64,000 nt of DNA from Candidatus Obscuribacteraceae bacterium (GCA_044226015.1 JBGAHS010000001.1:320001-384000), one strand, 5' to 3'. Shown: positions 15,941 through 50,230, counted from the stretch's first letter. Notes: generated by a model from the letters alone, not told the origin. Made by a program: numbers and translations.

Positions 15941-16094
15941 TTGGAAATCGCTGTCCAAAATCTTTCTCGTCTGTATACACCCACACAGACAGGAGAAAGG
16001 CGCAAGTTGTCGCCAAAATTGCATACGTTTTTTGCAGCCCGCATGATTAGTGCGGGCTAAGCGGCTTTAGTAATTTCCGCACTTATATCGCTTT

Positions 16095-16232
16095 CTTAAA
16101 AATTCAACTCATAGACAGTGCATATGGGTTGAGTTTACATTCGCAATGTTAAGGGATTTATACAGCGCAAGCAAACACCGACCACCGCAGAATCTTGCGG
16201 TGTCTAGCTTGGCGCATGGCGGGGATAGCAGC
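16095..16232 (+). promoter_or_regulatory. Conserved promoter/leader shared with 18440-18572
   Basis: Shared blocks CTTAAAA, ATRGACAGT, TTGAGTT, TGTTAAGGGATT, TACAGC, a hairpin followed by TCTAG, and GGGGATA SD. Confidence 0.6.
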
Positions 16233-18026
16233 ATGGAAAAACCGACAGATCTTCAGCTTGCGAAGTTTGATAGCAACGCAGGACAACGCAGTGAGCATGA
16301 CGCTCTAATCAACAAAGTAGCCATGGAAATGGCCGGCGGAGACAGCAAAGATCTTATGAGCTTTAACAAAGCTCCAGAAAATACACTGACCCGCTATGGA
16401 ATGGCTACAACTCAGGGACTTCTCAAAGTACCTGAAGGAGTGTTCAATGCGGTAAAGCAGAATGTCCAAAACCCAATTCAAGCACTCGAGACTGTCGGTA
16501 TGGGTGCCGGCATGGCAGTGGTACTGAAAACGGTGCTTCCTGAGGGGGGACCCGCCGGAAAGTTGGCAGCCGGTGCCATTGGCGCGTACCTTACTTACAA
16601 GGCTGCTGAGCCTATAGTTGATGGCTTCAAACAAGCCGGTGCTGCAAGCACAATGAAAGAAATGGCAAGCGCTTCTGACCAAATCGGCAATGCTGGTGGT
16701 GCCTTCATTGTTGATTCAGCTCTTGCTTTTGGTGGCTATAAGCTTGGTGCTCGCTTGAGTGATAGAGCCTTTTCGACTTCTCTAGGCAAGTCGTTTACAG
16801 AAGCCAAAAATGGAATGTACGACAATATAGGTAACAAGGTTTCTGACGCTTTAGGAGTAACTTCAGGCAATACTGTCGTGACCCCATTTGGTCCGCGCAG
16901 TCTTGCACGCAACTTCACCCCAAGCGGATATGGTGTGATTCCTCCATACATGTTGCAAGAATTGTCAGTTCGAAATCCAGGAGTCGATGCATTCGCAAAG
17001 ACTCACAACGCAACTATCGATATGCAGACCAAGCCAGGTCAATTCAAGCCAAATGCTGCCGGAGCTGATGCTGCTGCACCAGCGGTGCGTGAAGTGTACG
17101 ACGCGAAGGGTCGTGAAACGCAGCCAGGAACCAAAGCGCGTTTTGAGGGTGAGAAACCCACAGGCAATGTAGAGGTTGATAACGGCTACGATTACACAGG
17201 ATTTGTTCGTGACTTTTACGCGAAGGAATACGGACGCAATTCGATTGATGGAAAAGGCATGAAGTATGTCTCTACTGTAAATTATGGTCAAAACTATGAA
17301 AATGCGTTCTGGGACGGCAAGCAAATGACATACGGTCATCCTAGCGCTAACAGTCCATTCCGCACATTCGTTATTCTCGATGTGGCCGGTCACGAAATCA
17401 CACATGGTGTTACCGAAATGGAGTCTGGAATGAGATATTTCGGACAATCTGGCGCCTTGAACGAGCACCTTTCTGATGTTTTTGGTGTGATGATTGAGCA
17501 GTATTCGAAGGGGCACACAGCAGATAAAGCTAACTGGATTGTTGGCGAAAAAATTTGGAAAGATAACATCAATGGACGCGGTCTTCGTGACATGAGAAAT
17601 CCGGGAACTGCCTATGATGATCCGGCTATAGGCAAAGACCCACAACCTGCGCACATGAATGACTACTACAAAACCTGGGGTGACAACGGTGGTGTTCACT
17701 ACAATTCAGGTATTCCAAACAAGGCTTTTGCTACATTTGCAATTGATGTAGGTGGAAACGCATGGGATGCACCAGGACATATCTGGTTTGAAGCTCGCAA
17801 AAATGCAGGTAGCAATCCTAGCTTTGGTTCATTCGCTGCACACACGGTTGAAGCTGCGAAGAAACTAGGCCACACTGAACTTGTTCCAAAACTGGAAAAA
17901 GCCTGGAACGATGTTGGTGTCAAACCAGACATCAACGCTACCGACACGACAACTCCAGGTGGAGGTCGTGGTGGTGATGACGACAATGTAGGTTTCATGC
18001 GTCGTCTATTCAAGAAAGCTAGCTAG
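16233..18026 (+). CDS. Protealysin-like M4 metallopeptidase fused to the shared N-terminal domain
   Basis: Propeptide motif IPPYML, NAFWDG, HEITH, GALNEHLSD, DNGGVHYNSGIPN; N-terminal ~230 aa shared with three other ORFs. Confidence 0.93.
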   Translation: MEKPTDLQLAKFDSNAGQRSEHDALINKVAMEMAGGDSKDLMSFNKAPENTLTRYGMATTQGLLKVPEGVFNAVKQNVQNPIQALETVGMGAGMAVVLKTVLPEGGPAGKLAAGAIGAYLTYKAAEPIVDGFKQAGAASTMKEMASASDQIGNAGGAFIVDSALAFGGYKLGARLSDRAFSTSLGKSFTEAKNGMYDNIGNKVSDALGVTSGNTVVTPFGPRSLARNFTPSGYGVIPPYMLQELSVRNPGVDAFAKTHNATIDMQTKPGQFKPNAAGADAAAPAVREVYDAKGRETQPGTKARFEGEKPTGNVEVDNGYDYTGFVRDFYAKEYGRNSIDGKGMKYVSTVNYGQNYENAFWDGKQMTYGHPSANSPFRTFVILDVAGHEITHGVTEMESGMRYFGQSGALNEHLSDVFGVMIEQYSKGHTADKANWIVGEKIWKDNINGRGLRDMRNPGTAYDDPAIGKDPQPAHMNDYYKTWGDNGGVHYNSGIPNKAFATFAIDVGGNAWDAPGHIWFEARKNAGSNPSFGSFAAHTVEAAKKLGHTELVPKLEKAWNDVGVKPDINATDTTTPGGGRGGDDDNVGFMRRLFKKAS

Positions 18027-18080
18027 CTTGGGCAGGACTACAAATCGGTTGGCAGAGACTGATTTGTGAAAGAGAGTCCG

Positions 18081-18116
18081 GAAGGCGCTGTTGTGGTGAC
18101 GGCGCCTTCTTCATTT
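18081..18116 (+). terminator. Intrinsic terminator-like hairpin
   Basis: GAAGGCGCTGTT/GACGGCGCCTTC stem with a weak T tail after the stop. Confidence 0.6.
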
Positions 18117-18572
18117 ATAAAGAAGAACTTTCTACAGATTTGAGGAATTTTCCTGTTTGAGAAAGCATGATGAAAGGCAGACCACTTAGTATCCAGTTAT
18201 TGATTCCCATTCGATAGCCAAAAAAACGCAGATTCGATGAGGGTCTTTTGAGCCAGATAAAATGAGTGTTGCTTCATTTAGAGCAAACGTCAGTTGTAAA
18301 TACAAAATGGATCATCTATCCAGATCCGATCGATCTTTGGACAATTCTTAAAGCACTTAAATCCAGTTCTGATGCGGATCTTAACGCACGCTCATTCAGC
18401 GTGTATATCTGGCGTATTTACCGCACTGATCATGGAAACCTTAAAATCCGCACAATGGACAGTTGATTTGAGTTGAATTACAGTCAGATTGTTAAGGGAT
18501 TGTTTACAGCCATGTAACGGAGATGCACTGCCGAGAGCGCGGTGGTCTAGTGCTGTATTAGGGGATATGAAA

Positions 18573-20321
18573 ATGGAAAATTCGAAAGAGCTTCTTCTGA
18601 AGCATGAAGATACCAAAGGCGCAAATTCAAATGACGATGCTCTGATCAATAAAGTCGCTATGGAGATGATGGGCGGTAGCAGCAGCAACAAAGACCTGAT
18701 GTCTTTCCAGAAAGCTCCAGAAAGTTTGATTGCAAGATATGGCAATGTAACATTGAACGGATTGGGCTATGTACCTGAAGGCGTAGTCAATGCTGTGAAG
18801 GAAAATGTAAATCATCCAGGCAAGGCACTCGCAACGTTAGGCATGGGTGCTGGAATGGCAGTGGTACTGAAGACGGTGCTGCCAGAATCAGGACCTGCAG
18901 GCAAGATTGCCGGAGCAGCACTTGGCGCATACTTTACATACAAAGCTGCTGAGCCAATCATCGATGGATACAAACAAGCAACTCACGCTACTACCATGGC
19001 TCAACTCGACCACGCATCGCGACAAATTGGTAATGCTGGCGGTACCTTTATAGTTGATTCGGCAATTGCCGCAGTCGGTTACAAAGGCGGCGCAGCTCTG
19101 GCCGACAGAGCACTCGCAATGCCAGCCGCGACAGGTTTCAAAATTGCAAGAGAAAACTTCTATGACAACATGGGTGCTCGATTGAACCACTCTCTGGGAA
19201 TCACTTCCGAGTCAGCATTTGTCAAACCGGAAATGCAGGGTGTAGTTCCTCCCTACATGTTGGATGAACTGGCAAAGCGCAATCCCGGAAATTCAGACTT
19301 CCTCAAGACACGTAATCAGACTCTGGAAATGCAAACCAAGGGACACCACGGTCCAAACCAGCCACGAGCCGGACAAGACTTTAAGGGTGCTCGCGAAGTG
19401 TATGATGCGGGCGGTCAGGAAGTTCAACCAGGTACTAAGGTTCGCTTTGAAGGAGAGAAGCCTTCCGGCAATGTGGATGCTGACAAAGTTTATGAATACA
19501 CTGGTCAGATTCGTGAGTTCTACGAAAAAGTTCATGGAAGAAATTCCATTGACGGCAAGGGTATGAAGATGGTTTCGACCGTCAACTACGGCGAAAACTT
19601 CGAGAATGCTTTCTGGGATGGCAAGCAAATGACTTATGGTCGCCCAGGTGAAAATAGCCCCTTCAAGAGCTTCATCTTGCGTGATGTTACCGGGCATGAA
19701 ATCACCCACGGTATCACTGAAATGGAAGCTAACGAAAAGTATTATGGTCAATCTGGTGCATTGAACGAAAGTAACTCTGATATCTATGGCGCGCTGGTAG
19801 ATCAGTACGTCAAAGGTCAGACTGCAGACAAGGCTTCCTGGTTGGTTGGCGAAGGCATATGGAAAGAAAACGTCAAAGGACGTGCATTGCGTGACATGTT
19901 GAATCCAGGTACCGCATACAATGACGCTGCGGTTGGTAAAGACCCACAACCAGCTCACATGGACAAATACGTCAAGACCTGGGGCGACAATGGTGGCGTA
20001 CACATCAACTCTGGTATCCCGAATAAAGCATTTGCTACATTTGCACAATCGGTCGGTGGCAACGCGTGGGAAGCACCAGGGCACATCTGGTTTGAAGCTA
20101 GAAAAGCTGCCGGCAGTAATCCAAGCTTCTCATCATTTGCTGCTCATACGCTCGAAGCTGCAGGCAAGTTGCCTAACGCTGGTGAAGTTGTTCCAAAACT
20201 ACAAGCGGCATGGAAGGGCGTTGGAGTTGTTCCAAATATCAACGCAGTAGACACCATCTCTCCAGGAGCTACCGAAGGTGCCTTGAGCTTCATCGGCAAG
20301 TGGTTCAAGAAAGCTAGCTAA
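18573..20321 (+). CDS. Protealysin-like M4 metallopeptidase paralog with the shared N-terminal domain
   Basis: VPPYML, NAFWDG, HEITH, GALNESNSD, DNGGVHINSGIPN; colinear with 16233..18026; start may be 18567. Confidence 0.93.
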   Translation: MENSKELLLKHEDTKGANSNDDALINKVAMEMMGGSSSNKDLMSFQKAPESLIARYGNVTLNGLGYVPEGVVNAVKENVNHPGKALATLGMGAGMAVVLKTVLPESGPAGKIAGAALGAYFTYKAAEPIIDGYKQATHATTMAQLDHASRQIGNAGGTFIVDSAIAAVGYKGGAALADRALAMPAATGFKIARENFYDNMGARLNHSLGITSESAFVKPEMQGVVPPYMLDELAKRNPGNSDFLKTRNQTLEMQTKGHHGPNQPRAGQDFKGAREVYDAGGQEVQPGTKVRFEGEKPSGNVDADKVYEYTGQIREFYEKVHGRNSIDGKGMKMVSTVNYGENFENAFWDGKQMTYGRPGENSPFKSFILRDVTGHEITHGITEMEANEKYYGQSGALNESNSDIYGALVDQYVKGQTADKASWLVGEGIWKENVKGRALRDMLNPGTAYNDAAVGKDPQPAHMDKYVKTWGDNGGVHINSGIPNKAFATFAQSVGGNAWEAPGHIWFEARKAAGSNPSFSSFAAHTLEAAGKLPNAGEVVPKLQAAWKGVGVVPNINAVDTISPGATEGALSFIGKWFKKAS

Positions 20322-20355
20322 TAGTCCTTGGTCGCCAATCTGGCGGCACAATTAG

Positions 20356-20388
20356 GAAGGGAACTGTACTCCGGTTCCCTTCTTTGTT
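20356..20388 (+). terminator. Intrinsic terminator
   Basis: GAAGGGAACT/GGTTCCCTTC stem plus TTTGTT. Confidence 0.65.
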
Positions 20389-20689
20389 CATTGTGCAATT
20401 GAGTGAACCGCTTCCCGGCATCAATTTTTTTTGCTGCATCCAGTCCAATATTTCTAGTATCTGAACAAGGCGTCTGGCTTTCACAAAACTTGCTGGAAGC
20501 AGAATTTGTTCCTAAGTTACTGAAAGTGAGAAAAGGATATCCTGTGTATATGCGGTTTTCCGCACTGATCCCGCTTTCTGTGAGTTTCAGTTTCTGGACT
20601 CGGAGGCGCTTCCCCATTAAATTCGAAGTAGATTTATTCGGGGTAGGCAGAGGCACATACAAAGTCTTTGCACAGGAATCGAGTTAAGT

Positions 20690-23116
20690 ATGGAAGCGAA
20701 CGAGAGAGACCAGAACAAGGTAAGCGATCACAAAAATGAAGCAAATCGAGGTGAGCAAGATTCGCTGATTAACAAGGTTGCACGAGAAAGCTTGGGCGAA
20801 AATCCTGGGAGGCTATTGACCTTTCAGAGCGCGCCCGATAATACGCTAGTTCGCTACGGCATAGTTTCCATTAACGGATTGGAGAACATCCCTAAAGGCG
20901 TTGTTCATTCGATTTCTCATAACATCAAAAATCCACTTCATGCCTTAGAGACCGCTGGTACAGCAGCTGGAATGGCGGTTGTTTTGAAAACGGTGCTGCC
21001 GGAGGGAGGAATCGCAGGCAAGTTGGCTGGTGCAGCCATAGGTGCATATTTTACGTACAAAGCCGCAGAACCAATTTTTGGTGCTTACAAAATCGCGCAC
21101 AATGCCACCACGATGTCTCAGCTAGATTTCGCGTCTAAGCAGATAGGTGAAGCTGGTGGTGCTTTCATTGTTGATTCTGCAATCGCTGCTGCGGGTTACA
21201 AGCTAGGGTCACATTACACAGAACGAGTCCTTAGCAGTCAATCGATGGATGGCTTCTCTGATGCAAAAGCGAATTTTTATTCCAGGCTTGGCGAGAGCGG
21301 TAAACGGTTTACTGACAGCTTAGGTGTCACCGCGCCCGACCAGAGTGGTCGGTATTCCTTTAAGAGTTCTGATGGATTGTCCAGCCGTGTTCGTTTGGGA
21401 GCCTCCGAGAGAACCGCTCCTAATGGAGTGTTGAAGGGTGAGCTGGACCCGACTGTTGAGATGGATGTCACCGTCATGCTCAAATCAAAAGGAAGCGATT
21501 TGCGTATGGATCGCACCCTTGCTCGAATTGCACAGGGGCGACAGGCGCCTTTGACAGAAGCACAATTTACCGAGCAATTTTCTGCAAAACCCGAGTCATT
21601 AAAAGCTGTGAGCCAGTTTGCTGAAACTAACGGATTGAAAGTCACTGAGTCAGACTTGCGTTCTGGTCGCGTTGTTTTGCACGGAAAAGTTGGCGATTTT
21701 TCAAACGCTTTTGAAACCAGGCTTGCCCAATATGAAAATTCAGGTTCAGTGTTTCGTGGACGCGAAGGTAGTTTGTCCGTGCCCTCAGATGTAGCTACAC
21801 ATATCGAGGGAGTTTTAGGGATGGACAATCGTCCTCAAGCGAGATCTTACGCAATAAGCAATTTGATAGAAGCGGAAAGACCGGCGATAAATAAGCTTGT
21901 GAATCCGAAAGGACCTGGTGATGTGCCTCCTTCCGGACCAACTCCGACTGAGCCAGGTCCCTCATTACCCAACGCTAAGCGTGGTGGTGTCATGCCAAAT
22001 GAAGTGGCTGATGCCTACAATTTTCCAAAGCAAACTACGGGTGAAGGTCAGGCAGTGGCGATTATTGAGCTTGGCGGCGGGCTTGATAAGGCTGAAAACA
22101 CTAAATACTACCAGCAGAATTCTTTGCCAGAGCCGAAGATCAATATTATTGAAATGAACGGAGTGAAGAACAAGCCTGGAATAGACTCAAGAGCAGACGC
22201 CGAAGTTCATTTGGATTCCCAGGTTATTGGTGTTGTCGCTTCTAAAGCTGAGCAGAATTTGATTTTTACTGAGAACTCAGACAAGGGGTTTATTGACGCT
22301 ATTACTCGTGCAACTTTCCCCGAGCCTGGTGATAAGCCCAGCTCAGCAATTAGCATAAGTTGGGGTGCGCCTGAAGAACTCTGGTCAAAACAGGGCATGG
22401 AAGGAATGAGTACTGCCTTGAAAAAGGCTGCACTCAAAGGTCTTTCGGTCTTCGCGGCGTCTGGAGATGATGGCGCTATCGACAATTCACGTTCTGGAAG
22501 TTTTCAGGTTGATTTTCCGGCATCTGAGCCTACCGTCACCGGCACTGGTGGCACCAGGCTGAATTTGAAAGATGGCGCTGTTGAGTCCGAAGTCGCCTGG
22601 AACAACGGCAGCAACAGCTCAGGTGGTGGTGGCGTTAGCCAGCAGTTCTCTATTCCCGAATATCAAAAGGGTGTAAATATTCCTGCCAATGCAAACAGAA
22701 GCGGCGGGGCCGGTCGTGGTGTTCCGGATGTTGCTGGAAATGCAGACCCCGTGACGGGCTATCGCATAAGAGTACCCGGCGGAGATTCGGTCACCGGCGG
22801 AACAAGCGCAGTTGCTCCACTATACGCTGCACTGACCATGCGTTTGAATGAAAGCCTCGGAAAACCGATTGGTAGTTTGAATCCGTGGCTCTACAAAAAT
22901 ACTGGAATATTCAACGACATTGTTCAAGGACACAATAATGGCTATAAGACTGCACCTGGTTGGGACGCAGTGACTGGTTGGGGATCGATCGATGGAACGA
23001 AAATGTTGGAAACATTGAAAACAAATCCGAATGTGAACCCCAGCTTTGGTCAATTTCAGTTTGTTGGTCCAAGTCAGGCTAACCTGCTTTCTCCACCAGA
23101 TCAAAGCCGTAAATAG
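20690..23116 (+). CDS. Kumamolisin/sedolisin-like S53 peptidase (with pro-domain) fused to the shared N-terminal domain
   Basis: Pro-domain, AIIELGGG, EVHLD (Glu/Asp), ISISWG, ASGDDG, RGVPDVAGNADP, GGTSA (Ser), GWDAVTGWGS. Confidence 0.93.
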   Translation: MEANERDQNKVSDHKNEANRGEQDSLINKVARESLGENPGRLLTFQSAPDNTLVRYGIVSINGLENIPKGVVHSISHNIKNPLHALETAGTAAGMAVVLKTVLPEGGIAGKLAGAAIGAYFTYKAAEPIFGAYKIAHNATTMSQLDFASKQIGEAGGAFIVDSAIAAAGYKLGSHYTERVLSSQSMDGFSDAKANFYSRLGESGKRFTDSLGVTAPDQSGRYSFKSSDGLSSRVRLGASERTAPNGVLKGELDPTVEMDVTVMLKSKGSDLRMDRTLARIAQGRQAPLTEAQFTEQFSAKPESLKAVSQFAETNGLKVTESDLRSGRVVLHGKVGDFSNAFETRLAQYENSGSVFRGREGSLSVPSDVATHIEGVLGMDNRPQARSYAISNLIEAERPAINKLVNPKGPGDVPPSGPTPTEPGPSLPNAKRGGVMPNEVADAYNFPKQTTGEGQAVAIIELGGGLDKAENTKYYQQNSLPEPKINIIEMNGVKNKPGIDSRADAEVHLDSQVIGVVASKAEQNLIFTENSDKGFIDAITRATFPEPGDKPSSAISISWGAPEELWSKQGMEGMSTALKKAALKGLSVFAASGDDGAIDNSRSGSFQVDFPASEPTVTGTGGTRLNLKDGAVESEVAWNNGSNSSGGGGVSQQFSIPEYQKGVNIPANANRSGGAGRGVPDVAGNADPVTGYRIRVPGGDSVTGGTSAVAPLYAALTMRLNESLGKPIGSLNPWLYKNTGIFNDIVQGHNNGYKTAPGWDAVTGWGSIDGTKMLETLKTNPNVNPSFGQFQFVGPSQANLLSPPDQSRK

Positions 23117-23782: not shown

Positions 23783-25564
23783 ATGAAGCGAATACGCCGG
23801 TTTGCTTGTGCCGCCATTCTTTCGTGCACGTTGTCGATGAACTTTAATTTAGCGAATGCGGAAAAGCCACAAGCTCTAAGTGCGCTGGCCCAGATGCCTG
23901 TGAAGGAAGTAACTGTCTTCAAAGACGGGCACGCCTTCGTCATGCACGAAGGAAAAATGCCTACCGATGAGCAGGGCGATGTGTTGATGGATTACTTGCC
24001 TGCACCTGTCTTGGGCACGTTCTGGTCGTATTCGCTGGAGAAAGATGCCAAATTGAGTTCAGTTCTTGCTAGTAGGCATAAGGTTCTTGTGCCGCAGAGT
24101 GCCTTAAGAGTGGCCGAGTTTATTCGGGCTAATCCCGGTGCGCAAGTCGAGGTAGTAGAAGTTCGAAATCGCGGCTCTGCTAACGCCAGCACGATAACCT
24201 ATGATGCACAAATTGTAGGAACGCCAGAACGCAGCTCAGAAGAAATTGAGTCCACCTTGCCTCCAAACTCTGGTGAGCATTTACCGGAATACGGCGATTG
24301 TGTCTTGCTGAAGACAGCCGCTGGAGTCGCTCCTGTGCCATTGCAAAACATCGAATACGTCACATTCAAATCAGGTTTTCAATCGAAACTATCCAACGAG
24401 GAGTTTCGAAATCTTTTGCGTTTGAGATTGGATTGGTCAGGAAAGTCCGCAAGCAAGAATGCAGAAGTCGGAATGGCTTACTTGCAGTCAGGCATGCGTT
24501 GGATTCCCGAATACAGAATAAACATAGATGGGGCTGGGAATGCTCAATTGCGCTTGCAAGCGACATTGGTGAACGACCTTACTGATTTGAAAGATGTGGT
24601 ATGTCACTTCGTAGTGGGTGTGCCGTCGTTCTCTTTCAAGGACCAGGTCGACCCAATTTCATTGCAAGAAACAATAGTCAATGTTGCCTCTCATGCAAAT
24701 GGTTATGCCATGCAAAATCGCCTGTCGAACGCCATTATGAGCCAATCAGTGCAGTATGCCGACATGTCCTCAGTAGAGCCTGCGGCAAGCAGCACGCCAG
24801 AACTTAGTGGCTCGGCAAAAAATGAAGACCTTTATGTCTTCACCGTAAAACATGTCAGCTTGCGGAAGGGACAACGAATGGTTGTGCCTGTTTACGAGAC
24901 AACTCTAAAATACAAAGATATTTATACGCTGAACCTTCCATTCAGTCCGCCACCAGATGTGGTGCGTAATTTTAATCAGTCGCAGCAAAGCGAAATCGAA
25001 CGGATGTTGAAGGCTCCTAAATTTGTGCACAAGATAAGGCTTATGAATAAGTCCGATTACCCGCTGACCACGGCGCCTGCTTTGTTATTGAGAGATGATA
25101 AAGTTTTGGCGCAAGGCATGACTACTTATACAGCCGCAGGTGCAAAGAGTGATTTGACCTTAACTACCGCTGTAGATTTGAAAGTGAAGAAGCAGGACAA
25201 GGAAACGTCGCGTACACCAAATGCAGTGTCGTGGCAGGGCGATCAATATGGACGAATTGATTTGAGTGGTACTGTTAGTGTGACCAATTTTGGATCTAAC
25301 CCAGCCGATATTGAAGTGACACGCTTTGTGCTTGGCAAAACCGGTAAGGCAAGCAACGATGGCGTTTCCGAGATGGTGAATGTGTTTGAAGATTATGAGT
25401 TCTTGCCAGATGGAGGAAGTATTTATCCTGTCTGGTGGAGCTGGTACAACTGGCCCAATTGGTGGAGTCGAGTTAATGGGGTCGGCAAAATAAGTTGGAA
25501 CAAAACAATTGCACCGAAAGAGTCAATTGATCTCAACTATAACTGGAGCTACTTCTGGCGTTAG
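23783..25564 (+). CDS. Exported DUF4139/DUF4140-like protein
   Basis: Signal peptide; VKEVTVFKDGHAFV, YLQSGMRWIPEYRI, VSLRKGQ and PLTTAPA segments resemble DUF4139. Confidence 0.65.
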   Translation: MKRIRRFACAAILSCTLSMNFNLANAEKPQALSALAQMPVKEVTVFKDGHAFVMHEGKMPTDEQGDVLMDYLPAPVLGTFWSYSLEKDAKLSSVLASRHKVLVPQSALRVAEFIRANPGAQVEVVEVRNRGSANASTITYDAQIVGTPERSSEEIESTLPPNSGEHLPEYGDCVLLKTAAGVAPVPLQNIEYVTFKSGFQSKLSNEEFRNLLRLRLDWSGKSASKNAEVGMAYLQSGMRWIPEYRINIDGAGNAQLRLQATLVNDLTDLKDVVCHFVVGVPSFSFKDQVDPISLQETIVNVASHANGYAMQNRLSNAIMSQSVQYADMSSVEPAASSTPELSGSAKNEDLYVFTVKHVSLRKGQRMVVPVYETTLKYKDIYTLNLPFSPPPDVVRNFNQSQQSEIERMLKAPKFVHKIRLMNKSDYPLTTAPALLLRDDKVLAQGMTTYTAAGAKSDLTLTTAVDLKVKKQDKETSRTPNAVSWQGDQYGRIDLSGTVSVTNFGSNPADIEVTRFVLGKTGKASNDGVSEMVNVFEDYEFLPDGGSIYPVWWSWYNWPNWWSRVNGVGKISWNKTIAPKESIDLNYNWSYFWR

Positions 25565-38499: not shown

Positions 38500-39186
38500 T
38501 TGGCAAAAATAATTCTCGTTGAAGACGAACAGTTCATTGCTAACAGTGTCAAAAACTGGTTGGAGAATGAAAATCACACAGTCGATGTTGTAAGCAATGG
38601 CGACGATGGACTTTATCGTTTGTTGAATTATTCATACGATTTGGCGATTCTAGATTGGCAACTCCCCGGCATGCAAGGTGCCGATATTTGTCGTGAACTA
38701 CGTGCAAAACAATACGAGATTCCAATATTGATGCTGACGTCGAGATCTAGCCTGCCTGACCGATTGGAAGGCATAGAAAGTGGAGCCTTCGACTACATGG
38801 TGAAGCCCGCGTCACTGGAGGAATTGAGTGCGCGGGTAAGGGCACTTCTTCGAAGAATAACTCCTCCAGAACTTGCAAGTGTGATTGTCGCGAATCTCGA
38901 ATTGAAGAAGGAGTCGCATGAAGCATTTGTAAACAACGAAAAGCTAGCGCTCTCCCCTATAGAGTTTCAACTTCTGGAATTGTTTTGTGAAAATCTTGAT
39001 AGAACCATCACTGCCGACAGTATTGTAAGAAAATTATGGGCTGGAAAAGAAACTCAATCCAGGCAACACTTACGTGTGCATATGACACATTTACGGCAAA
39101 AGCTGAAGTCAGCCCAGTGCCAGCTTGTAATAGTCAGCCCCAGTGGTGGTGGCTATTTGGCGCAAAAACAGAGCGAGTCAGGCTAG
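38500..39186 (+). CDS. OmpR-family response regulator
   Basis: LVEDE, LDWQLPG, KP, winged-helix C-terminus; divergent from the kinase gene. Confidence 0.93.
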   Translation: MAKIILVEDEQFIANSVKNWLENENHTVDVVSNGDDGLYRLLNYSYDLAILDWQLPGMQGADICRELRAKQYEIPILMLTSRSSLPDRLEGIESGAFDYMVKPASLEELSARVRALLRRITPPELASVIVANLELKKESHEAFVNNEKLALSPIEFQLLELFCENLDRTITADSIVRKLWAGKETQSRQHLRVHMTHLRQKLKSAQCQLVIVSPSGGGYLAQKQSESG

Positions 39187-40961
39187 TTAGATTTGCCAGT
39201 GAGTTTCTTTTCAATAGCAACCAATTGGGCTCTGGCAGCTTTTCTTGCTGAAATAAATTCTTCCTTGTCAGCCTCTGTTAGCTCAAGTACCTGTTTGTAA
39301 GAGTCCTGCGCACCTTTTAGGTCATTACACTCCATCTGGCAGAAACCCAAGTTTGTATAATTGGAGGTTAGTGCCCGGCTGAGGTTCAATCTCGCTTCCT
39401 TCTCCGCGTAAGATCTTCCCATCGAACCGCCAAAGTATTGGATCGCTCCTTGGTAATTGCTGCCATCTGTACGCAGAATGTTGATGCTGCGATTGAAGAA
39501 TGGTCTTGCTTCATCATAGTGTTTCATTAGCATCTCAGTGTCTGCTGCCGATTCAAGTGCTCCTAATAAAGCCAGTCTTCGTTGACCATTCGACTTCTCT
39601 GTGAGGGCGATTACTTTCTCGTACACTTTCATTGCCTCGGGCAGTTTATTTTGAAATCGATAGTTGCTTGCCAGGGACAAAAGCAGGCTTTCGTCTGTAG
39701 TTAAGTTCAGTTTCTCGAAATCATTGGACGCATGAGCTAGTTCTCGCAGTTTGAGAGCTCTAATGCGCAGTGGTACGGCGGCTTTGTAGTTTTGAACATC
39801 GTCATATATCTGGGCAAGATCTTCCAGCGGTGAGATGAGATAGGGGCTGTTGCCGCCATATCTTTTTTCTTTCATTGCAAGAATTCTCTTTTGAGCTTCG
39901 ATGCTTGAAAGCTTTATTTTTTTTCCGTGGTCTTGCGGAATCGAATCTCTGTGCACTGCCTTTTCGGGCATCAATTTTAAGCGAAAAAGCATCGTCATCG
40001 ATGTAATTGCAAGAAGGAATACAAACGGTACGGACTGAAGAAAAATGCTCTTATTGGTTCTCGTGGTGAACTTCTTGTTCCAGCTAGTGCAACGGCGTGG
40101 CAGTATTTTATGGAGATCGAGATTACCTTTTATTGCTTCCGTTATCTCATCGCAGCGGGAGAATCGGTCCTCTGATTCCTTTTGAATGCACCTCAAGATA
40201 ATCGCCTTAAATAAAGAATCTTTTGTGTGATTTGTTAACCGAAATTCTGGTTCGGAGGGGAAAAGATTTTGGTGGAAATAGAATGATGTTAGTGGTGTTT
40301 CCGATTCGAAGTTGGACTTTCCACTTAGAAGTTCCATCATGATGTAACCAAAAGCATAAATATCCCAACTGGCATCAACATTCGGCAGTGAAAGAATTTG
40401 TTGGGGGCTCATATATCGATAATTTCCGACCAGAGCCCCAGTCCTTGTAAGTTTCTGAATTTCAGGGTCAAGAAGTTTAGCAAGCCCGAAATCTATCAAA
40501 CGAACGCGAAAGCCGTCAGCATCTTTTTGCAAGTAAATATTAGATGGACTCAAATCGCGATGAATAATTCCACAACTATGTAGATATGTGAGCGCCTTCA
40601 ACGATTGCAGCAAAATAGATTCAGCAAGTTCTAAATCCAGCGGCTCTTGCCGAATCAACTTACTGAGAGCTTGTCCCTCCAGGTGCTCCATAACCAGAAA
40701 TGGCGTGCTTTCGTCAAAAAAATCCATTGTGTAAATTGACACGATGTTCGGATGTGAAAGTTGAGCAAGAATTTGAGCTTCTCGTTTATATCGGTCAATA
40801 TCAGATATATCAATTAACTTCAGTAGCTTGATTGCTACTTTTCGGTTGAGCTTCTCGTCAACGGCCGTATAAACGTAGGCGAATCCGCCCTCACCGATAA
40901 AATCGACAATGCGATAGTGGCTACCAATTACGGTACCTGGCGTTAGTTTAACGAGGCTCAT
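39183..40961 (-). CDS. Hanks-type Ser/Thr kinase with TM and C-terminal TPRs
   Basis: GEGGFA, VAIK, HRDLSPSN, DFG, YMSPQQ; TM segment; TPR repeats. Confidence 0.92.
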   Translation of the reverse strand: MSLVKLTPGTVIGSHYRIVDFIGEGGFAYVYTAVDEKLNRKVAIKLLKLIDISDIDRYKREAQILAQLSHPNIVSIYTMDFFDESTPFLVMEHLEGQALSKLIRQEPLDLELAESILLQSLKALTYLHSCGIIHRDLSPSNIYLQKDADGFRVRLIDFGLAKLLDPEIQKLTRTGALVGNYRYMSPQQILSLPNVDASWDIYAFGYIMMELLSGKSNFESETPLTSFYFHQNLFPSEPEFRLTNHTKDSLFKAIILRCIQKESEDRFSRCDEITEAIKGNLDLHKILPRRCTSWNKKFTTRTNKSIFLQSVPFVFLLAITSMTMLFRLKLMPEKAVHRDSIPQDHGKKIKLSSIEAQKRILAMKEKRYGGNSPYLISPLEDLAQIYDDVQNYKAAVPLRIRALKLRELAHASNDFEKLNLTTDESLLLSLASNYRFQNKLPEAMKVYEKVIALTEKSNGQRRLALLGALESAADTEMLMKHYDEARPFFNRSINILRTDGSNYQGAIQYFGGSMGRSYAEKEARLNLSRALTSNYTNLGFCQMECNDLKGAQDSYKQVLELTEADKEEFISARKAARAQLVAIEKKLTGKSN

Positions 40962-41273
40962 CGATGCTTCACAGGCTTGTGAATGATCTATTCCCTGTTT
41001 TGGATTTTCGTTAGCGCAGATCTTCATAGGACCCTTTGAACACCCTTTCAAACACTAAAGCAGACCGCGGGTTGGTCTGCTTTGTGCGGAGTTTGATGCT
41101 CTTTCATCTTATTCAAGGGGCATTAATTTTTTGTGGCATGAGTGCACACGTGATTTCACGATTTCCTTCCACAATTTATTAATCCCCGAAGTTGTTCAAT
41201 TCCAACAGTTCGACATCCCCATTTGAAGGCAACAAAGGGCGTTTGCATTTCTCTATAATTAAGGAGTCTTCGC

Positions 41274-43372
41274 ATGGACAGACACTCACCCCGGGACAAT
41301 GAAACGCAATCGCACGAGGTTTCTGGTGCAAGCAAGGAATTCCCATCACAAGTTCGTGGTGAACTACACAATGCTGCTTATGAAGGGGCGATCAAAAATC
41401 TAAAGTGGCGTCCCCAAAATGACCCTGCTAATAAGGTTTTGAGTACACTTTCCTTTATTGATAAATCAGCGATTGTGGCAAAGGAGGGCGGCGCTGCGCT
41501 GAAAGATTCTGTTGTTGATTCTATTGTGGGCGTTCATAACATACATCTTGGTAAAGATGTTGATTTGCCTGTACCTAAGGCACTGGAGACAGTGGCTGCA
41601 GGTGCTGCAATTGGTTTCGCCTCTCGCACACTGCTTCCTCAGCTAGGTGTATTTGGTAAGTTGGGCAATGCTGCGTTGGCAGTGGCTCTTACTGCTCCGG
41701 TGGCAAAGCAGGCTTTTGATGCAGCCAATGAATTCAAGCATGCCAGAATGGAAAATGACCTTCGACATGCTTCACATGAAATGGGCGCAGTAGTTGGTAG
41801 TCTTGCAGCAAGCACACCCCTTGGTATTGCAGGCTTTAGAGCTGGTACTTTAGCTGCTGATCGCGTTCTAGTTTTGCCTTCAATGGCTGAATTCAATTCC
41901 AGCAAGGCTCAAAAATTCGATGCTGTGAATGATTGGATGCGTGAAAGAATAAATGATGGTGCGGCACATGCAAAAAATTTCGCTGTAGGTGAGAGCCGAT
42001 ATCCGGGCTCTCATGGCGTCGCTGAACAGTTCCCGCAAATTACCGATTCCTTGCGCAATGGAATTAAGGGGACTGATTACGCTTTGCCGACAGTCAAGCT
42101 GTCTGAAAATATAGGAAAGGACGCCCGCGTGTTGGTTGTTACAGGTCATGGTGTTGAGGCACCGGAATTTACTGAAGTCGTGAAAGCCATGAAAGGTGCC
42201 GGTGCTGAGGTTACTGTAGCAACTCCAGATTGGACATGGGATTATCAACCAAAAAATCCTGGTAAAGTCACACTGGCTCAATGGTTAGCGAATGACCACG
42301 TTCTGCAGGGCGATATCTCGGTTTCGAATGCGGCCAAGATGATGAGTGAGGGTAAATTTGATGCGATGTATATTCCAGGCGGCGCTGGAAACACTGCGGC
42401 TATAAGAACAGATTCGGCGATTCAAGCTCTAGTCAGGCAGTCACTTCAACAGAAGCTCGACACATGGACAATCTGTCATGGAGGCCAGGTCTTTGTTAGT
42501 GCTTTAGAGAAAAACTCGGGCATTAAGCTAACCGGTTCTGGCGATATAACTGCTCAAGATTTGCCAAACGCAGGTTTCGTTGTTCCGAAGGATCCTGTTG
42601 TGTTTGACTCGACTCATAAAATACTGAGTGGGAAGGATCCAAGTGTCTTGAACGAATTCATCACCGCCATTGGTGACAGATTCAAGAGTATACAAGAACG
42701 GAAACTTAGTCCGGTAGCAGCTGCTCCTAAGCCGTTCTCAACACCAGTTGAGCTGCTGGCGCAATCAATTGCAGAGCGTCCTCCTGTGCCATCGGCTTCA
42801 GAGCTTCGCTACCCTGGAGCAGCGCCAAGTTATCCTCGTGGTCTTCGAGCCGAGTCCTCTGCTGTTTCGGGATATCCAGAAGGGCTGGACAGTTGGAAGA
42901 GAACGGGACCCCGAGATACCGCCGTTGATACCAGTGCTGCGAAGATTCCACAGGGTGATACCAGATATCCTCAAAATAATCCCAACTATCCAAAAGAATT
43001 AGGTGGACCCGGTGCAGCAGCAGAAGTTCCCGTTCCAGCTGTTTCGGGATATCCAGAAGGGTTGGACAGTTGGAAGAGAACGGGACCCCGAGATACCGCC
43101 GTTGATACCAGTGCTGCGAAGATTCCACAGGGTGATACCAGATATCCTCAAAATAATCCCAACTATCCAAAAGAATTAGGTGGACCCGGTGCAGCAGCAG
43201 AAGTTCCTGTTCCAGCTGTTTCGGGATATCCAGAAGGGTTGGACAGTTGGAAGAGAACGGACCCCGAGATACCGCCGTTGATACCAGTGCTGCGAAGATT
43301 CCACAGGCTGATACCAGATATCCTCAAAATAATCCCAACTATCCAAAAGAATTAGGTGGTCCACGCAAATAG
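41274..43372 (+). CDS. DJ-1/PfpI-family domain fused to a divergent copy of the shared N-terminal domain, with C-terminal 59-aa repeats (1-bp frameshift near 43260)
   Basis: GVEAPEF, FDAMYIPGG, ICHG; the ORF as given stops at 43355, while restoring one G gives ...KELGGPRK-TAG at 43372. Confidence 0.85.
42861..43359 (+). repeat. 177-bp near-perfect tandem repeat (about 2.8 copies)
   Basis: Units start at 42861, 43038 and 43215 (GCTGTTTCGGGATATCCAGAAGGG...). Confidence 0.95.
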
Positions 43373-47464: not shown

Positions 47465-47590
47465 GGCGAATGATTTGTTGCCGCTACAAGTTCTGTGTAA
47501 ACAACGCTGCCCTAGCAACCTTTTTTTGTTATTTCCGGAATTTGCGAGTAGGATTGTATTGGCTCTCTGCCAAGTTCTTTAATGCAATTG

Positions 47591-50230
47591 ATGAACGATT
47601 CAACAGATAACTACGCCTTGAATAAGAATGACTGGGACTACCTCACAAGGGAGTTTGCCAAGTTAGGTGTTGCTATCGAAAGCCAGATTTCAAATGGGGC
47701 AAATTCTCAGCTATTCAAGGCAAGGCAATCAAATTTGCAAAGAGAAGCTGTTGTCAAAGTACTGGCAAACGGACTTTTACCGACTGATGTTGCTTATTTG
47801 CGCTTCCAGGAAGAGTCGAAGATTCTTGGTTCATTGTCTCATGCCAATATTGTTCAGTTGTATGGTGTAGGCCGTCTTCCTGATGGACGTTCATACATGA
47901 TCATGGAGTATCTAGAGGGGAAGACTCTAGAGCAAATTATCGCAAGTGGAGAAGTATTAGATGAGCCTGCAATTCGTGGTTATTGTGCCAACCTCTGTGA
48001 AGCGCTGATCGCGGCTCATCAGCATAAAATCATCCACCGAGATCTGAAGCCTTCAAACGTAGTCATTTCTGATACCGAAAGTGGTGGCAAGATCGCGCGC
48101 CTGATCGATTTTGGAATTTTCAAGAAAACTGACGGCATTGATGGTGGAATGCAACTGACGCAGCTCGGAAGCTTGCCTGGCACACCTAACTACATGAGTC
48201 CAGAACAATGCAGCAAACAAGAAGTGGATGAGCGTTCAGATATTTACTCACTAGGTTGTTTGCTTTATGAACTTATTGCAGGGACGCCGCCGATGAATGC
48301 GGAGACTGACATGGTGATCATGTCTAACCATTTGAACAAGAAGATCACGCATGTTCCATCGAATCGTCCCATATCCTATGAACTAAAAAAGATTGTTTTG
48401 AGATGCCTTGAGAAAGACAAAACTCTGCGTTTTCCTGACGTGCCTGCTCTTATGGAGCAGTTAAATAAAGCATATGATTCCAAGAGTATTGATTATCGTG
48501 CAAAGCATATAGCCTTAGTGGGGCTTGGTTTGCTTGCACTTTTGGCATTTGGATGGTTCGCATTTTCAGTGATTAATGAACGCCGAACCGAACAATACAC
48601 TGCTCGTCGCGTCGATTACTTGTATGTGGATAAGGCTCTCGGGCTGCGCACTCGTGGGTGGGATGAGTTCTATGACAAGCTGAACAAGTTGGATAAGACT
48701 GATGAGGAGAAAGATTCGGCAATGCGTAGATGGGGACTTGACCATATCGAGAATCCAGATACGTGTTTTATCGATTTACAAAAGTCCCGGGTGGTGATGA
48801 AGATTTTGCCGCTCGACTCATTACCAGCCTTGTTAAAGAAAGTAAACGCTCGCTTAGAAGACATCGCAAACAATCCAAACAAAGGTAATTCGCACTTGAA
48901 TGTCCTCTTAAGAGATCCAAAATCACAAGAGCTATTTTGTTTGCTAGATTTGAAGTTCTATGCGGCTTTGCGCGCAAAACTGTTTGCTCAGTGTGTAAGC
49001 GCGGCTGAGCGTATTTACAGCACAAATAGTTTGAATACCTTTTTTGCAAATGAACAATACGCGGCTTACGCTAACGATCTCCTTAAGAATCTTACTGATT
49101 CACAGGAGCCTAGCGATGCTATTTTTCGCCGCCTGCGAAAAGTCCTTAATGACCGAGAAAAAGCGATTAAGCTTGGACTTACTTATGCTGAACTTCTTCG
49201 CAATCAAGAGCGCTTTGCCGTGATAATGCAAGCTTACAATGAGTTGATGGAACAACGGACCATTTCAGATCGTAAGATTCTTGGTTCGATGCTGGCTCTG
49301 CTTACAGAGCAGGGGTACATCAGTGAGGCTGTGGATGTGGTAAAGAAATTTCCTCTGCAACGTGGCGATGAAAATGGTGTTGTGCTGAATTATTTCTATG
49401 TTTTTCTAGCAATCAATGATTTGAAATCGGCCGTTGGTGTTTTAGATATGATCAAGAGCAATGAAGTGTCTGATTCTGAGCAGCAAAAAGTGACTATTCT
49501 GGCCTGCGATCTGCAGCTTGCTGTGGCTAGACGTCAAAACAGTAAAGCAGTAGAAATTGCCAAGAAAATTTTCGAGCAATACGGGAAGCGAATTCTCGAA
49601 ATCACGCCGCTAAAATTTGCGCTCATTCAAGCAGTGCCCTCAAATGGCGCGTTATTGCAACTCTGCGATGATTATTTACGAGATGAGCCACAATCTCTGG
49701 CTATTTTGCACGCTTCCCGAGGGCACACCTTGCGCACCCTGGGTAAGGACAGGGATGCTATTCGCCAGTACGAGCTTTCCCATCATTACTTTGACGTAGA
49801 CAAGCGAGTTTTTGCAGGTCGGCGGAATGTCTATATAGGAGAGTGCGAGTCGTACCTTCACCTTAAAGAGTTCGATAGTGCGAAATCCATTTTTCAAAAA
49901 GCTATTAACTACGGTGATAAGCACGTGACTCCTGATAGGTTCGCATTGGAATCAACCCGGGGGATCATTTCGAGAAGTGAAGGAAAATATGAGGAGGCTG
50001 CTCGCGTTCACGCAGCACTAATGAGGTCTTTTAGCAAAGAAGAAAAGAAGCTTTATTCCGAATTCTATTGCAATATCGTTGGAGAGCTCTGCCTTGATCA
50101 CTACCTGAATAAGAATAGGACTGCGCTGGATTCTGTAATCAAGGACGAAGGACCTTTCCTGAAACAAGCGGGACCTCATGGAACCTATATGATAGGTTAC
50201 ATCAGCGGTATGCTTAAGAACTTGAATTAG
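47591..50230 (+). CDS. Hanks-type Ser/Thr kinase with TM and a large helical (TPR-like) C-terminus
   Basis: VVK, HRDLKPSN, DFG, GTPNYMSPEQ, SDIYSLG; TM near residue 310; Gly-rich loop degenerate (SNGANS). Confidence 0.92.
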   Translation: MNDSTDNYALNKNDWDYLTREFAKLGVAIESQISNGANSQLFKARQSNLQREAVVKVLANGLLPTDVAYLRFQEESKILGSLSHANIVQLYGVGRLPDGRSYMIMEYLEGKTLEQIIASGEVLDEPAIRGYCANLCEALIAAHQHKIIHRDLKPSNVVISDTESGGKIARLIDFGIFKKTDGIDGGMQLTQLGSLPGTPNYMSPEQCSKQEVDERSDIYSLGCLLYELIAGTPPMNAETDMVIMSNHLNKKITHVPSNRPISYELKKIVLRCLEKDKTLRFPDVPALMEQLNKAYDSKSIDYRAKHIALVGLGLLALLAFGWFAFSVINERRTEQYTARRVDYLYVDKALGLRTRGWDEFYDKLNKLDKTDEEKDSAMRRWGLDHIENPDTCFIDLQKSRVVMKILPLDSLPALLKKVNARLEDIANNPNKGNSHLNVLLRDPKSQELFCLLDLKFYAALRAKLFAQCVSAAERIYSTNSLNTFFANEQYAAYANDLLKNLTDSQEPSDAIFRRLRKVLNDREKAIKLGLTYAELLRNQERFAVIMQAYNELMEQRTISDRKILGSMLALLTEQGYISEAVDVVKKFPLQRGDENGVVLNYFYVFLAINDLKSAVGVLDMIKSNEVSDSEQQKVTILACDLQLAVARRQNSKAVEIAKKIFEQYGKRILEITPLKFALIQAVPSNGALLQLCDDYLRDEPQSLAILHASRGHTLRTLGKDRDAIRQYELSHHYFDVDKRVFAGRRNVYIGECESYLHLKEFDSAKSIFQKAINYGDKHVTPDRFALESTRGIISRSEGKYEEAARVHAALMRSFSKEEKKLYSEFYCNIVGELCLDHYLNKNRTALDSVIKDEGPFLKQAGPHGTYMIGYISGMLKNLN

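Follow-up and report, generated by a model that had tools for sequence, protein, structure and literature searches.

Introduction

Serine proteases of the S53 family usually start with a signal peptide. Protealysin has been proposed to act in competition between bacteria, and emfourin is encoded in the same operon (PMC9505478, accessible part of the text). Polymorphic toxins display a constant N-terminal trafficking part and a variable C-terminal enzyme (PMC3482391, accessible part of the text). The present analysis concerns a 64,000 nucleotide (nt) stretch of DNA from Candidatus Obscuribacteraceae bacterium (GCA_044226015.1 JBGAHS010000001.1:320001–384000), termed the window. In the window three neighbouring genes on the + strand, designated A, B and C (positions 16,233–23,116), encode two M4 metalloproteases and one S53 serine protease that share an N-terminal module. 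The genome of origin (G000; contigs are given as C1, C11 etc.) is 8.19 Mb in size and 92% complete, and the window is at C11:320001–384000.

A previous sequence-only reading interpreted this arrangement as a polymorphic effector system whose common domain delivers proteases to another cell or compartment. The interpretation is partly supported by the results given below. The explanation preferred here is that the module is an export and membrane-insertion tag, which would deliver enzymes, independently of type VI secretion, into neighbouring cells that are prey or competitors; it is held tentatively, with nearly an even chance of being correct. Secretion and delivery of the module proteins are what we infer from the architecture, the cargo, the relatives of the module and its leader.

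The three protease genes and the shared module

Gene A (16233..18026) encodes a predicted 597 amino acid (aa) protein with a leader, the shared module, a protealysin-type propeptide and an M4 metalloprotease, in that order. Gene B (18573..20321, 582 aa, with an alternative start 6 nt upstream) likewise consists of leader, module, propeptide and M4 metalloprotease. Gene C (20690..23116, 808 aa) encodes the module followed by a pro-kumamolisin domain and an S53 serine protease. The two M4 domains and the pro-kumamolisin domain are recognized by Pfam, and the three genes are as originally described.

The module is at residues 16–206 of the gene A protein (16278..16850, predicted to be all-helical), at 18627..19190 in gene B and at 20753..21325 in gene C, all on the + strand. 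Local alignment of the first 215 residues of the three proteins gives identities of 61%, 54% and 57% over 197–210 columns; the M4 and S53 cargoes align over 13 and 29 columns only. The common region is confirmed, and every motif that had been quoted for it is found in the alignment of the three proteins, but its length is about 190–200 residues and not 230. Identity of the module core at the DNA level is approximately 70%, which indicates that the three genes are old duplicates.

Two Gly/Ala-rich hydrophobic segments had been proposed. These correspond to a helical hairpin (residues 81–101 and 107–124 of gene A; 16473..16604, + strand), however there is a third apolar stretch at about residues 151–177 and all of the segments are moderately hydrophobic. 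The best 19-residue Kyte-Doolittle means are 1.44, 1.70 and 1.29 for genes A, B and C. An AlphaFold2 model built from a 103-row alignment is all-helical (predicted local distance difference test 84, predicted template modelling score 0.62), and displays the same hairpin and a long helix at 141–180. A signal peptide is lacking, as judged from the charged N-termini.

No named family was found for the module, as had been suspected; Pfam, NCBIfam and PDB gave no match. The best E-values in PDB sequence searches were 0.92 and 0.48, and structure searches with the AlphaFold2 model gave no convincing match (Foldseek best E 1.3, VIA-align best Z 5.8). The ESM Atlas returned leads below 0.9 or unnamed clusters only; PT-TG (PF14449) was a lead at 0.88, which is below the 0.9 bar, and was not among the Pfam results, where 25 of 37 families were shown in one scan.

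Nor is the module a characterized propeptide. Genes A and B match PDB 2vqx, presumably the protealysin precursor, from 2vqx residue 6 with the propeptide included (E 2.3e-89), and in gene A the match starts at query residue 232, which is the start of the M4 propeptide. The M4 parts of both genes appear complete by their motifs, with a short propeptide that has a PPYML-type motif, an HExxH motif and a third zinc ligand; the catalytic domain of gene A (17094..17921, + strand) has HEITH at position 387 and NEHLSD at position 410. Gene C has a pro-kumamolisin activation domain at residues 247–380 (21428..21829, + strand; PF09286, E 5.6e-19), and the predicted Glu, Asp and Ser catalytic motifs are intact (EVHLD 505, ASGD 590, GTS 704). 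Since the gene A match includes the propeptide and a separate pro-kumamolisin domain is present in gene C, the module is additional to the propeptides. This bears on the possibility that the module is an extra pro-domain or a folding chaperone for proteases, which would agree with proteases being the commonest identifiable cargo. Because each protease retains the propeptide of its own family, close paralogues lack the module, and the module is also found on non-proteases and alone, such a function is extremely improbable.

Distribution of the module and exchange of cargo

Iterated hidden Markov models (HMMs) run on all six-frame open reading frames (ORFs) of the window genome converged on 24 genes (best reversed decoy E 0.3), with C11:715418 and C12:212530 left out of the count as self-trained artefacts. 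A deeper profile added one gene, for a total of 25 copies. Pfam analysis of 23 genes from other parts of the genome and window, together with genes A–C, shows S53 in six, M4 in two and HAD in two, and trypsin-like, DJ-1/PfpI, NADAR-like and PHP domains once each (PHP below the cut-off); the others are unmatched. One module gene of this genome encodes little more than the module. Thus the constant module with exchangeable cargo postulated by the sequence-only reading is found, but the cargo is not limited to proteases.

The module is present in 95 of 107 Obscuribacterales genomes, with up to 25 matches each. It was sought in 143 genomes that belong to other orders of the same class and found in none. 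Among 1.84 billion representative sequences, 139 clusters at 50% identity carry it, always near the N-terminus (141 before P0063 and P0142 were removed as repeat-protein false matches). It therefore extends well beyond recent duplicates. Additional cargoes among 43 scanned of the 139 clusters are M13, S9, phospholipase D and a flavin adenine dinucleotide oxidoreductase, and many domains remain without a name. A word-based homologue search with a deep alignment was crowded and returned nine S53 fusions.

One group of proteins of approximately 1,000 residues with a conserved HExxH motif accounts for 43 of the 139 clusters. This order-wide family, which is represented in the window genome by C8:263353–266145, is matched by neither Pfam nor NCBIfam. 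The family is probably the oldest member of the system and an undescribed metalloprotease fold or subfamily.

A tree was made from 54 modules with labelled cargo, others being omitted and the labels "GHlike" and "kinase" being assigned by eye. The 15 labels require 18 changes on this tree, where the minimum is 14. S53 requires eight changes, at least three of which are forced by well-supported branches, and M4 requires three, at least two of them forced. The M4 and S53 modules of the window are in one 100/99 clade with three other S53 proteins. The forced changes show that cargo has been exchanged more than once.

As judged from their domains, the proteases and phospholipase D would fit a toxin function; HAD, DJ-1, NADAR-like and oxidoreductase cargoes do not obviously do so.

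A remote homologue in bacteria with type VI secretion

A phylum-wide search gave weak module matches in seven genomes of other classes. Two of these carry a shortened module joined to an ABC1/UbiB atypical kinase (L047:3768–6017 and L048:3744–5960). Four others share a domain with the motif SHxFGVGE; three of the four end in an Ntox30, Ntox50 or colicin E3-like nuclease, and in three of the four a small gene follows. In total 91 homologues of the SHxFGVGE domain were found among 7,996 scored candidates, from sources named as Sericytochromatia, Proteobacteria, Acidobacteriota and Polyangia. Their C-terminal tips include Ntox30, Ntox46/TNT-like, Ntox50, colicin E3-like, EndoU, WHH, CdiA_C and Tox-REase-5 domains and HExxH-metalloprotease toxins. 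A peptidoglycan-binding domain is frequent in these proteins, and one of the toxin genes adjoins Imm52.

Comparison of module and SHxFGVGE profiles with hhalign gives probabilities of 93.3%, 96.9% and 94.0% over 114–121 columns. The score is 62.7, compared with 12.7 for the reversed control; none of 30 block shuffles scored above 25.1 or reached a probability of more than 19%. In reciprocal HMM searches of a set of 7,269 ORFs the top 37 and top 87 rows consist of the two families only, above all other ORFs. The identity is 13–19% and the motif is absent from the module, and the relationship is therefore one of remote homology. DUF6861, which we take to be the Tre1-like N-terminal domain, gave an hhalign probability of 1.4% with the module and 22.8% with the SHxFGVGE family, in a comparison with one DUF6861 sequence only.

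Type VI genes (Hcp, TssE/F/G, ClpV or VgrG) flank the SHxFGVGE gene in at least eight of 54 loci from named genomes, and several SHxFGVGE genes are between ClpV and VgrG. The count of eight is a floor, since many contigs are short. TssC is found in 46 of 50 distinct carrier genomes, a count that overstates independence because some of the carriers are kin (e.g. three Variovorax); two of the four misses are Sericytochromatia. The type VI-positive share of sequenced bacteria is given as 19% (bioRxiv 10.64898/2026.09.28.754971, accessible part). PIX, which the SHxFGVGE domain resembles in this respect, was called type VI-associated on a co-occurrence of 92.4% (bioRxiv 10.1101/2023.07.16.549128, accessible part). 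Independently of the module, the SHxFGVGE domain is a candidate for a new marker of type VI effectors. The suggested link of the module to effectors is supported, in that it is remotely homologous to a domain found at the head of polymorphic toxins in bacteria that have type VI systems.

The N-terminal leader

The proteins of genes A and B start with a leader, which consists of a charged N-terminus and a short helix of the form A-x-x-x-L-x-x-E/D-A. In gene A the helix is at residues 24–37 (16302..16343, + strand) and fits the genome-wide leader profile with 10.8 bits. The profile was built from the leaders that module proteins of the representative library carry, and was then applied to the window genome. 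In its refined form it gives 38 genes there a score of more than 15 bits; genes A and B are in the top 1.2% of N-termini. In held-out halves, 12 and 14 N-termini score above 13 bits, compared with 0–3 internal windows; against composition shuffles the numbers are 12 versus 0–3 and 15 versus 0–2.

The matches include proteins of 1,000–5,000 residues, and also three M4 and two S53 proteases that lack the module. There are 11 genes with M4 motifs in the genome, nine of which were examined: two have leader and module, five have a leader-like start (three by score and two by eye) and two start at the propeptide. In a small sample of five module-free genomes, S53 was found in none and M4 in two, where the proteins start at the propeptide without a leader.

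Approximately 40 leader proteins lack signal peptides, and these include giants of 2,500–5,000 aa (e.g. C11:406378–421578, C11:21502–29250 and C1:928632–936509). A motif of the LPxLxL type is often found after the leader (9/46, against a background of 6.5%). Two leader-bearing proteins, encoded at C7:172760–176560 and C9:200446–203286, failed the module profile and display other Gly/Ala-rich helical N-terminal regions, which are possibly further modules of the same system; the C9 protein has a 5′-nucleotidase domain. A common C-terminal signal was considered and rejected, as the numbers (4/27 and 5/73, against 64/4,909) are too few for a general claim.

Immunity genes and possible routes of export

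An immunity gene, as in toxin-immunity pairs, was not found beside the proteases. No plausible ORF follows genes A and C, and none of 90 aa or more is present on the + strand after gene B. No recurring partner was seen among the neighbours of 25 listed module genes.

Protealysin-type proteases have been reported in outer-membrane vesicles (PMC9505478, accessible part). The module proteins could be exported but retained on the surface or vesicles of the producer, where the hairpin would tether enzymes for the breakdown of dead biomass or of polymers in biofilms, and living cells would not be entered. The modest hydrophobicity of the hairpin suits a shallow anchor, the cargo is rich in broad hydrolases and immunity genes were not found. 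Such a surface tether is nevertheless unlikely. NADAR-like, HAD, DJ-1 and kinase-like enzymes act on cytoplasmic substrates and make more sense inside a cell, and the homologous domain heads nucleases that are required to enter the target cell.

With respect to secretion systems, no gene for type III (FlhA/SctV), type VI (TssC, Hcp, TssE, TssF, TssG and VgrG), a contractile sheath or WXG100 was detected in the 92%-complete window genome, and a known injection system is not supported. VgrG occurs in one of 107 genomes of the order and in none of five module-carrier genomes from other classes. The window genome has two secretins and a Tad-like locus, and a chromosomal cluster of relaxase-like, VirD4-like and VirB4-like genes is at C10:63035–71109. 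A second VirB4-like gene (C1:183271–185976) is split over two frames in this assembly; relatives have it as a single frame of about 910 residues. The PF03135 VirB4 profile missed the diverged VirB4 proteins of this genome. VirB4 is present in 106 and secretins in 105 of the 107 genomes, and the VirB4-like protein is 74–95% identical in most genomes of the order, which is unusual for a mobile conjugation system. At C6:245238–271155, five or more small secreted proteins of near-identical sequence are dispersed over 26 kb, each with a pair of apolar C-terminal helices; by eye they resemble VirB2/TrbC-type pilins, and the one that was scanned has no Pfam match.

The lack of a known injection system and of signal peptides would also agree with an intracellular role, i.e. 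the module could be an anchor at the inner membrane face, a storage body or a compartment of the producer, with nothing exported and the toxin ancestry mere history. Metabolic cargoes fit such a role, and the distant homologue with an ABC1/UbiB kinase fits as well, as kinases of this type work at membranes. In addition, the C-terminus of each M4 protein is an amphipathic helix (gene A, 17988..18020, + strand), a possible membrane-binding tail, with hydrophobic moments of 1.81 and 1.74 in genes A and B compared with 0.93 for gene C. However six S53 and two M4 module proteases would be hard to use in the cytoplasm, since S53 enzymes are acid-active and normally secreted. Furthermore, the leader marks many non-housekeeping proteins, and the copy number of 0–25 with lineage-specific cargo swaps is as in conflict systems. 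Retention inside the producer is thus quite unlikely.

The proposed export and delivery may be pictured as follows. The leader (residues ~15–40, common to module-free proteases and the giants) would be read by a Sec-independent export machine, for which the chromosomal VirB4/VirD4 (type IV-like) system is the best candidate. If export takes place, this system as its route is somewhat short of an even bet, and the remainder is divided among Tad, type IV pili or another machine. The Gly/Ala hairpin would insert into the target membrane and hold the enzyme there or pass it through, and each protease would be kept inactive until delivery by its own propeptide; adjacent immunity genes would consequently not be needed, as is proposed here. 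The peptidases, lipase and phosphatases may then act as a digestive or disarming cocktail and not as a kin-recognition toxin set. The cultured relative Vampirovibrio has been proposed to attack prey via a type IV system (PMC4451040, accessible part), but no copy of the module turned up in other orders of the class.

Several findings weigh against export and delivery. VirB4 and secretins are present also in genomes without the module, so that co-occurrence with a secretion system, which the sequence-only reading had suggested for examination, singles out no route. A relaxase-like gene beside the VirB4/VirD4 genes points to DNA transfer, and type IV secretion signals are usually C-terminal. No immunity ORF follows the three protease genes, and the single emfourin gene is on another contig (C12:75595) with no M4 gene seen beside it. 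The HAD, DJ-1, NADAR-like, oxidoreductase and ABM cargoes are ordinary metabolic or repair enzymes, and the ABC1 kinase carried by a relative of the module in another class is also of this type. The module does not retain the SHxFGVGE motif itself, and its hairpin is far less hydrophobic than that of the SHxFGVGE family: the median best window is 1.43 versus 2.32, and exceeds 1.6 in 22% of 151 module proteins compared with 100% of 91 SHxFGVGE proteins. With respect to the leader, gene C scores 2.1 bits, which is within background, though it is aligned in the same segment; simple leader patterns are not enriched and the enrichment is from the profile alone. Predation in Obscuribacterales is not described in the literature searched.

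Other features of the locus

An upstream element with a CCGCACT core is found at 16074..16096, about 156 nt before gene A, and also before gene B (18417..18432) and gene C (20557..20579), all on the + strand. A second box, TTAAGGG, is upstream of genes A and B, where the conserved stretches are 16074–16158 and 18417–18501. The CCGCACT elements also precede two S53 paralogues on other contigs, so that five close paralogues have them, and duplication of the module apparently took the promoter region along. As a family-wide promoter motif CCGCACT was rejected, as it is limited to these five (27 genes were counted, two of which later failed the module profile).

The three-gene run is also found in the related genome G007, where three adjoining matches have lengths of 631, 588 and 799 aa, and locus L053 of a relative shows two M4 genes followed by the beginning of a third.

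A fourth and more distant family member is encoded at 41274..43355 (+ strand), and consists of the module, a DJ-1/PfpI domain and repeats. The C-terminal part of the protein consists of Pro/Gly-rich tandem repeats, each of about 60 residues, and the final residues are seemingly out of frame, which is possibly an assembly error. Immediately 3′ of the protease cluster (23783–25564) is a gene for a secreted 593 aa protein that Pfam does not recognize. Two membrane Ser/Thr kinases whose C-termini have helical repeats, a type frequent in the genome, are at 39183–41051 and 47582–50230.

Significance and comparison with known systems

The Obscuribacterales are uncultured, non-photosynthetic relatives of cyanobacteria with large genomes and a lifestyle of which little is known; Vampirovibrio, a relative that has been cultured, is predatory. 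The effector-like repertoire found across the order, with its shared leader, is a testable handle on their feeding and on an export route missed by current markers. As search tools, the module lists candidate delivered enzymes of the order and the SHxFGVGE domain predicts new type VI toxins in many phyla.

A wider proposal is possible but doubtful. A type VI effector domain may have become detached from its machine and now be the membrane-entry module of an undescribed, lineage-wide system for protein delivery, which would have a leader of its own and be driven by a non-conjugative VirB4/VirD4 apparatus. Obscuribacterales would then be contact-dependent predators or parasites with up to 25 swappable enzymes, and SHxFGVGE would be a new type VI marker across at least six phyla. 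If true, this re-routing would represent movement of a delivery domain between secretion systems. Neither of the two domains, nor effectors of the order, were described in the literature searched, which covered few subscription journals; the SHxFGVGE family could be present under another name in the domain tables of polymorphic-toxin or type VI surveys.

Genes A and B are similar to protealysin in that they match it with the propeptide included and have no signal peptide, but they differ by about 230 extra N-terminal residues and by the lack of emfourin in the operon. Gene C displays the pro-kumamolisin domain and the Glu-Asp-Ser type catalytic motifs of the kumamolisin/sedolisin S53 family; unlike that family, it has the module in place of the usual signal peptide.

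The type VI effectors Tse6, Rhs1 and Tre1 have transmembrane hairpins and depend on Eag chaperones, and Chlamydia Inc proteins display a hydrophobic helical hairpin. The module proteins are comparable to both in that such a hairpin separates a putative export signal from the effector domain. However they have no PAAR domain or adjacent chaperone and are less hydrophobic, and no type III marker was found in the window genome.

MIX, FIX, RIX, PIX and WHIX are likewise N-terminal domains common to orphan genes with varied C-termini. In Pfam and NCBIfam scans, no model of these families matched either of the two domains described here. PIX is found mainly in Enterobacterales (bioRxiv 10.1101/2023.07.16.549128, accessible part), while the lineage of the module is almost without type VI genes.

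The module family behaves like a polymorphic effector system, yet fails two features of such systems, i.e. the immunity gene and a cognate known secretion system. The constant N-terminal part and variable C-terminal enzyme are as in polymorphic toxins, and the SHxFGVGE homologues are textbook toxin-immunity pairs. The Obscuribacterales genes differ from these toxins (PMC3482391, accessible part) in having no adjacent immunity gene or cassette array, and their cargo consists of large metabolic and proteolytic enzymes, where the polymorphic toxins described there have small nuclease tips.

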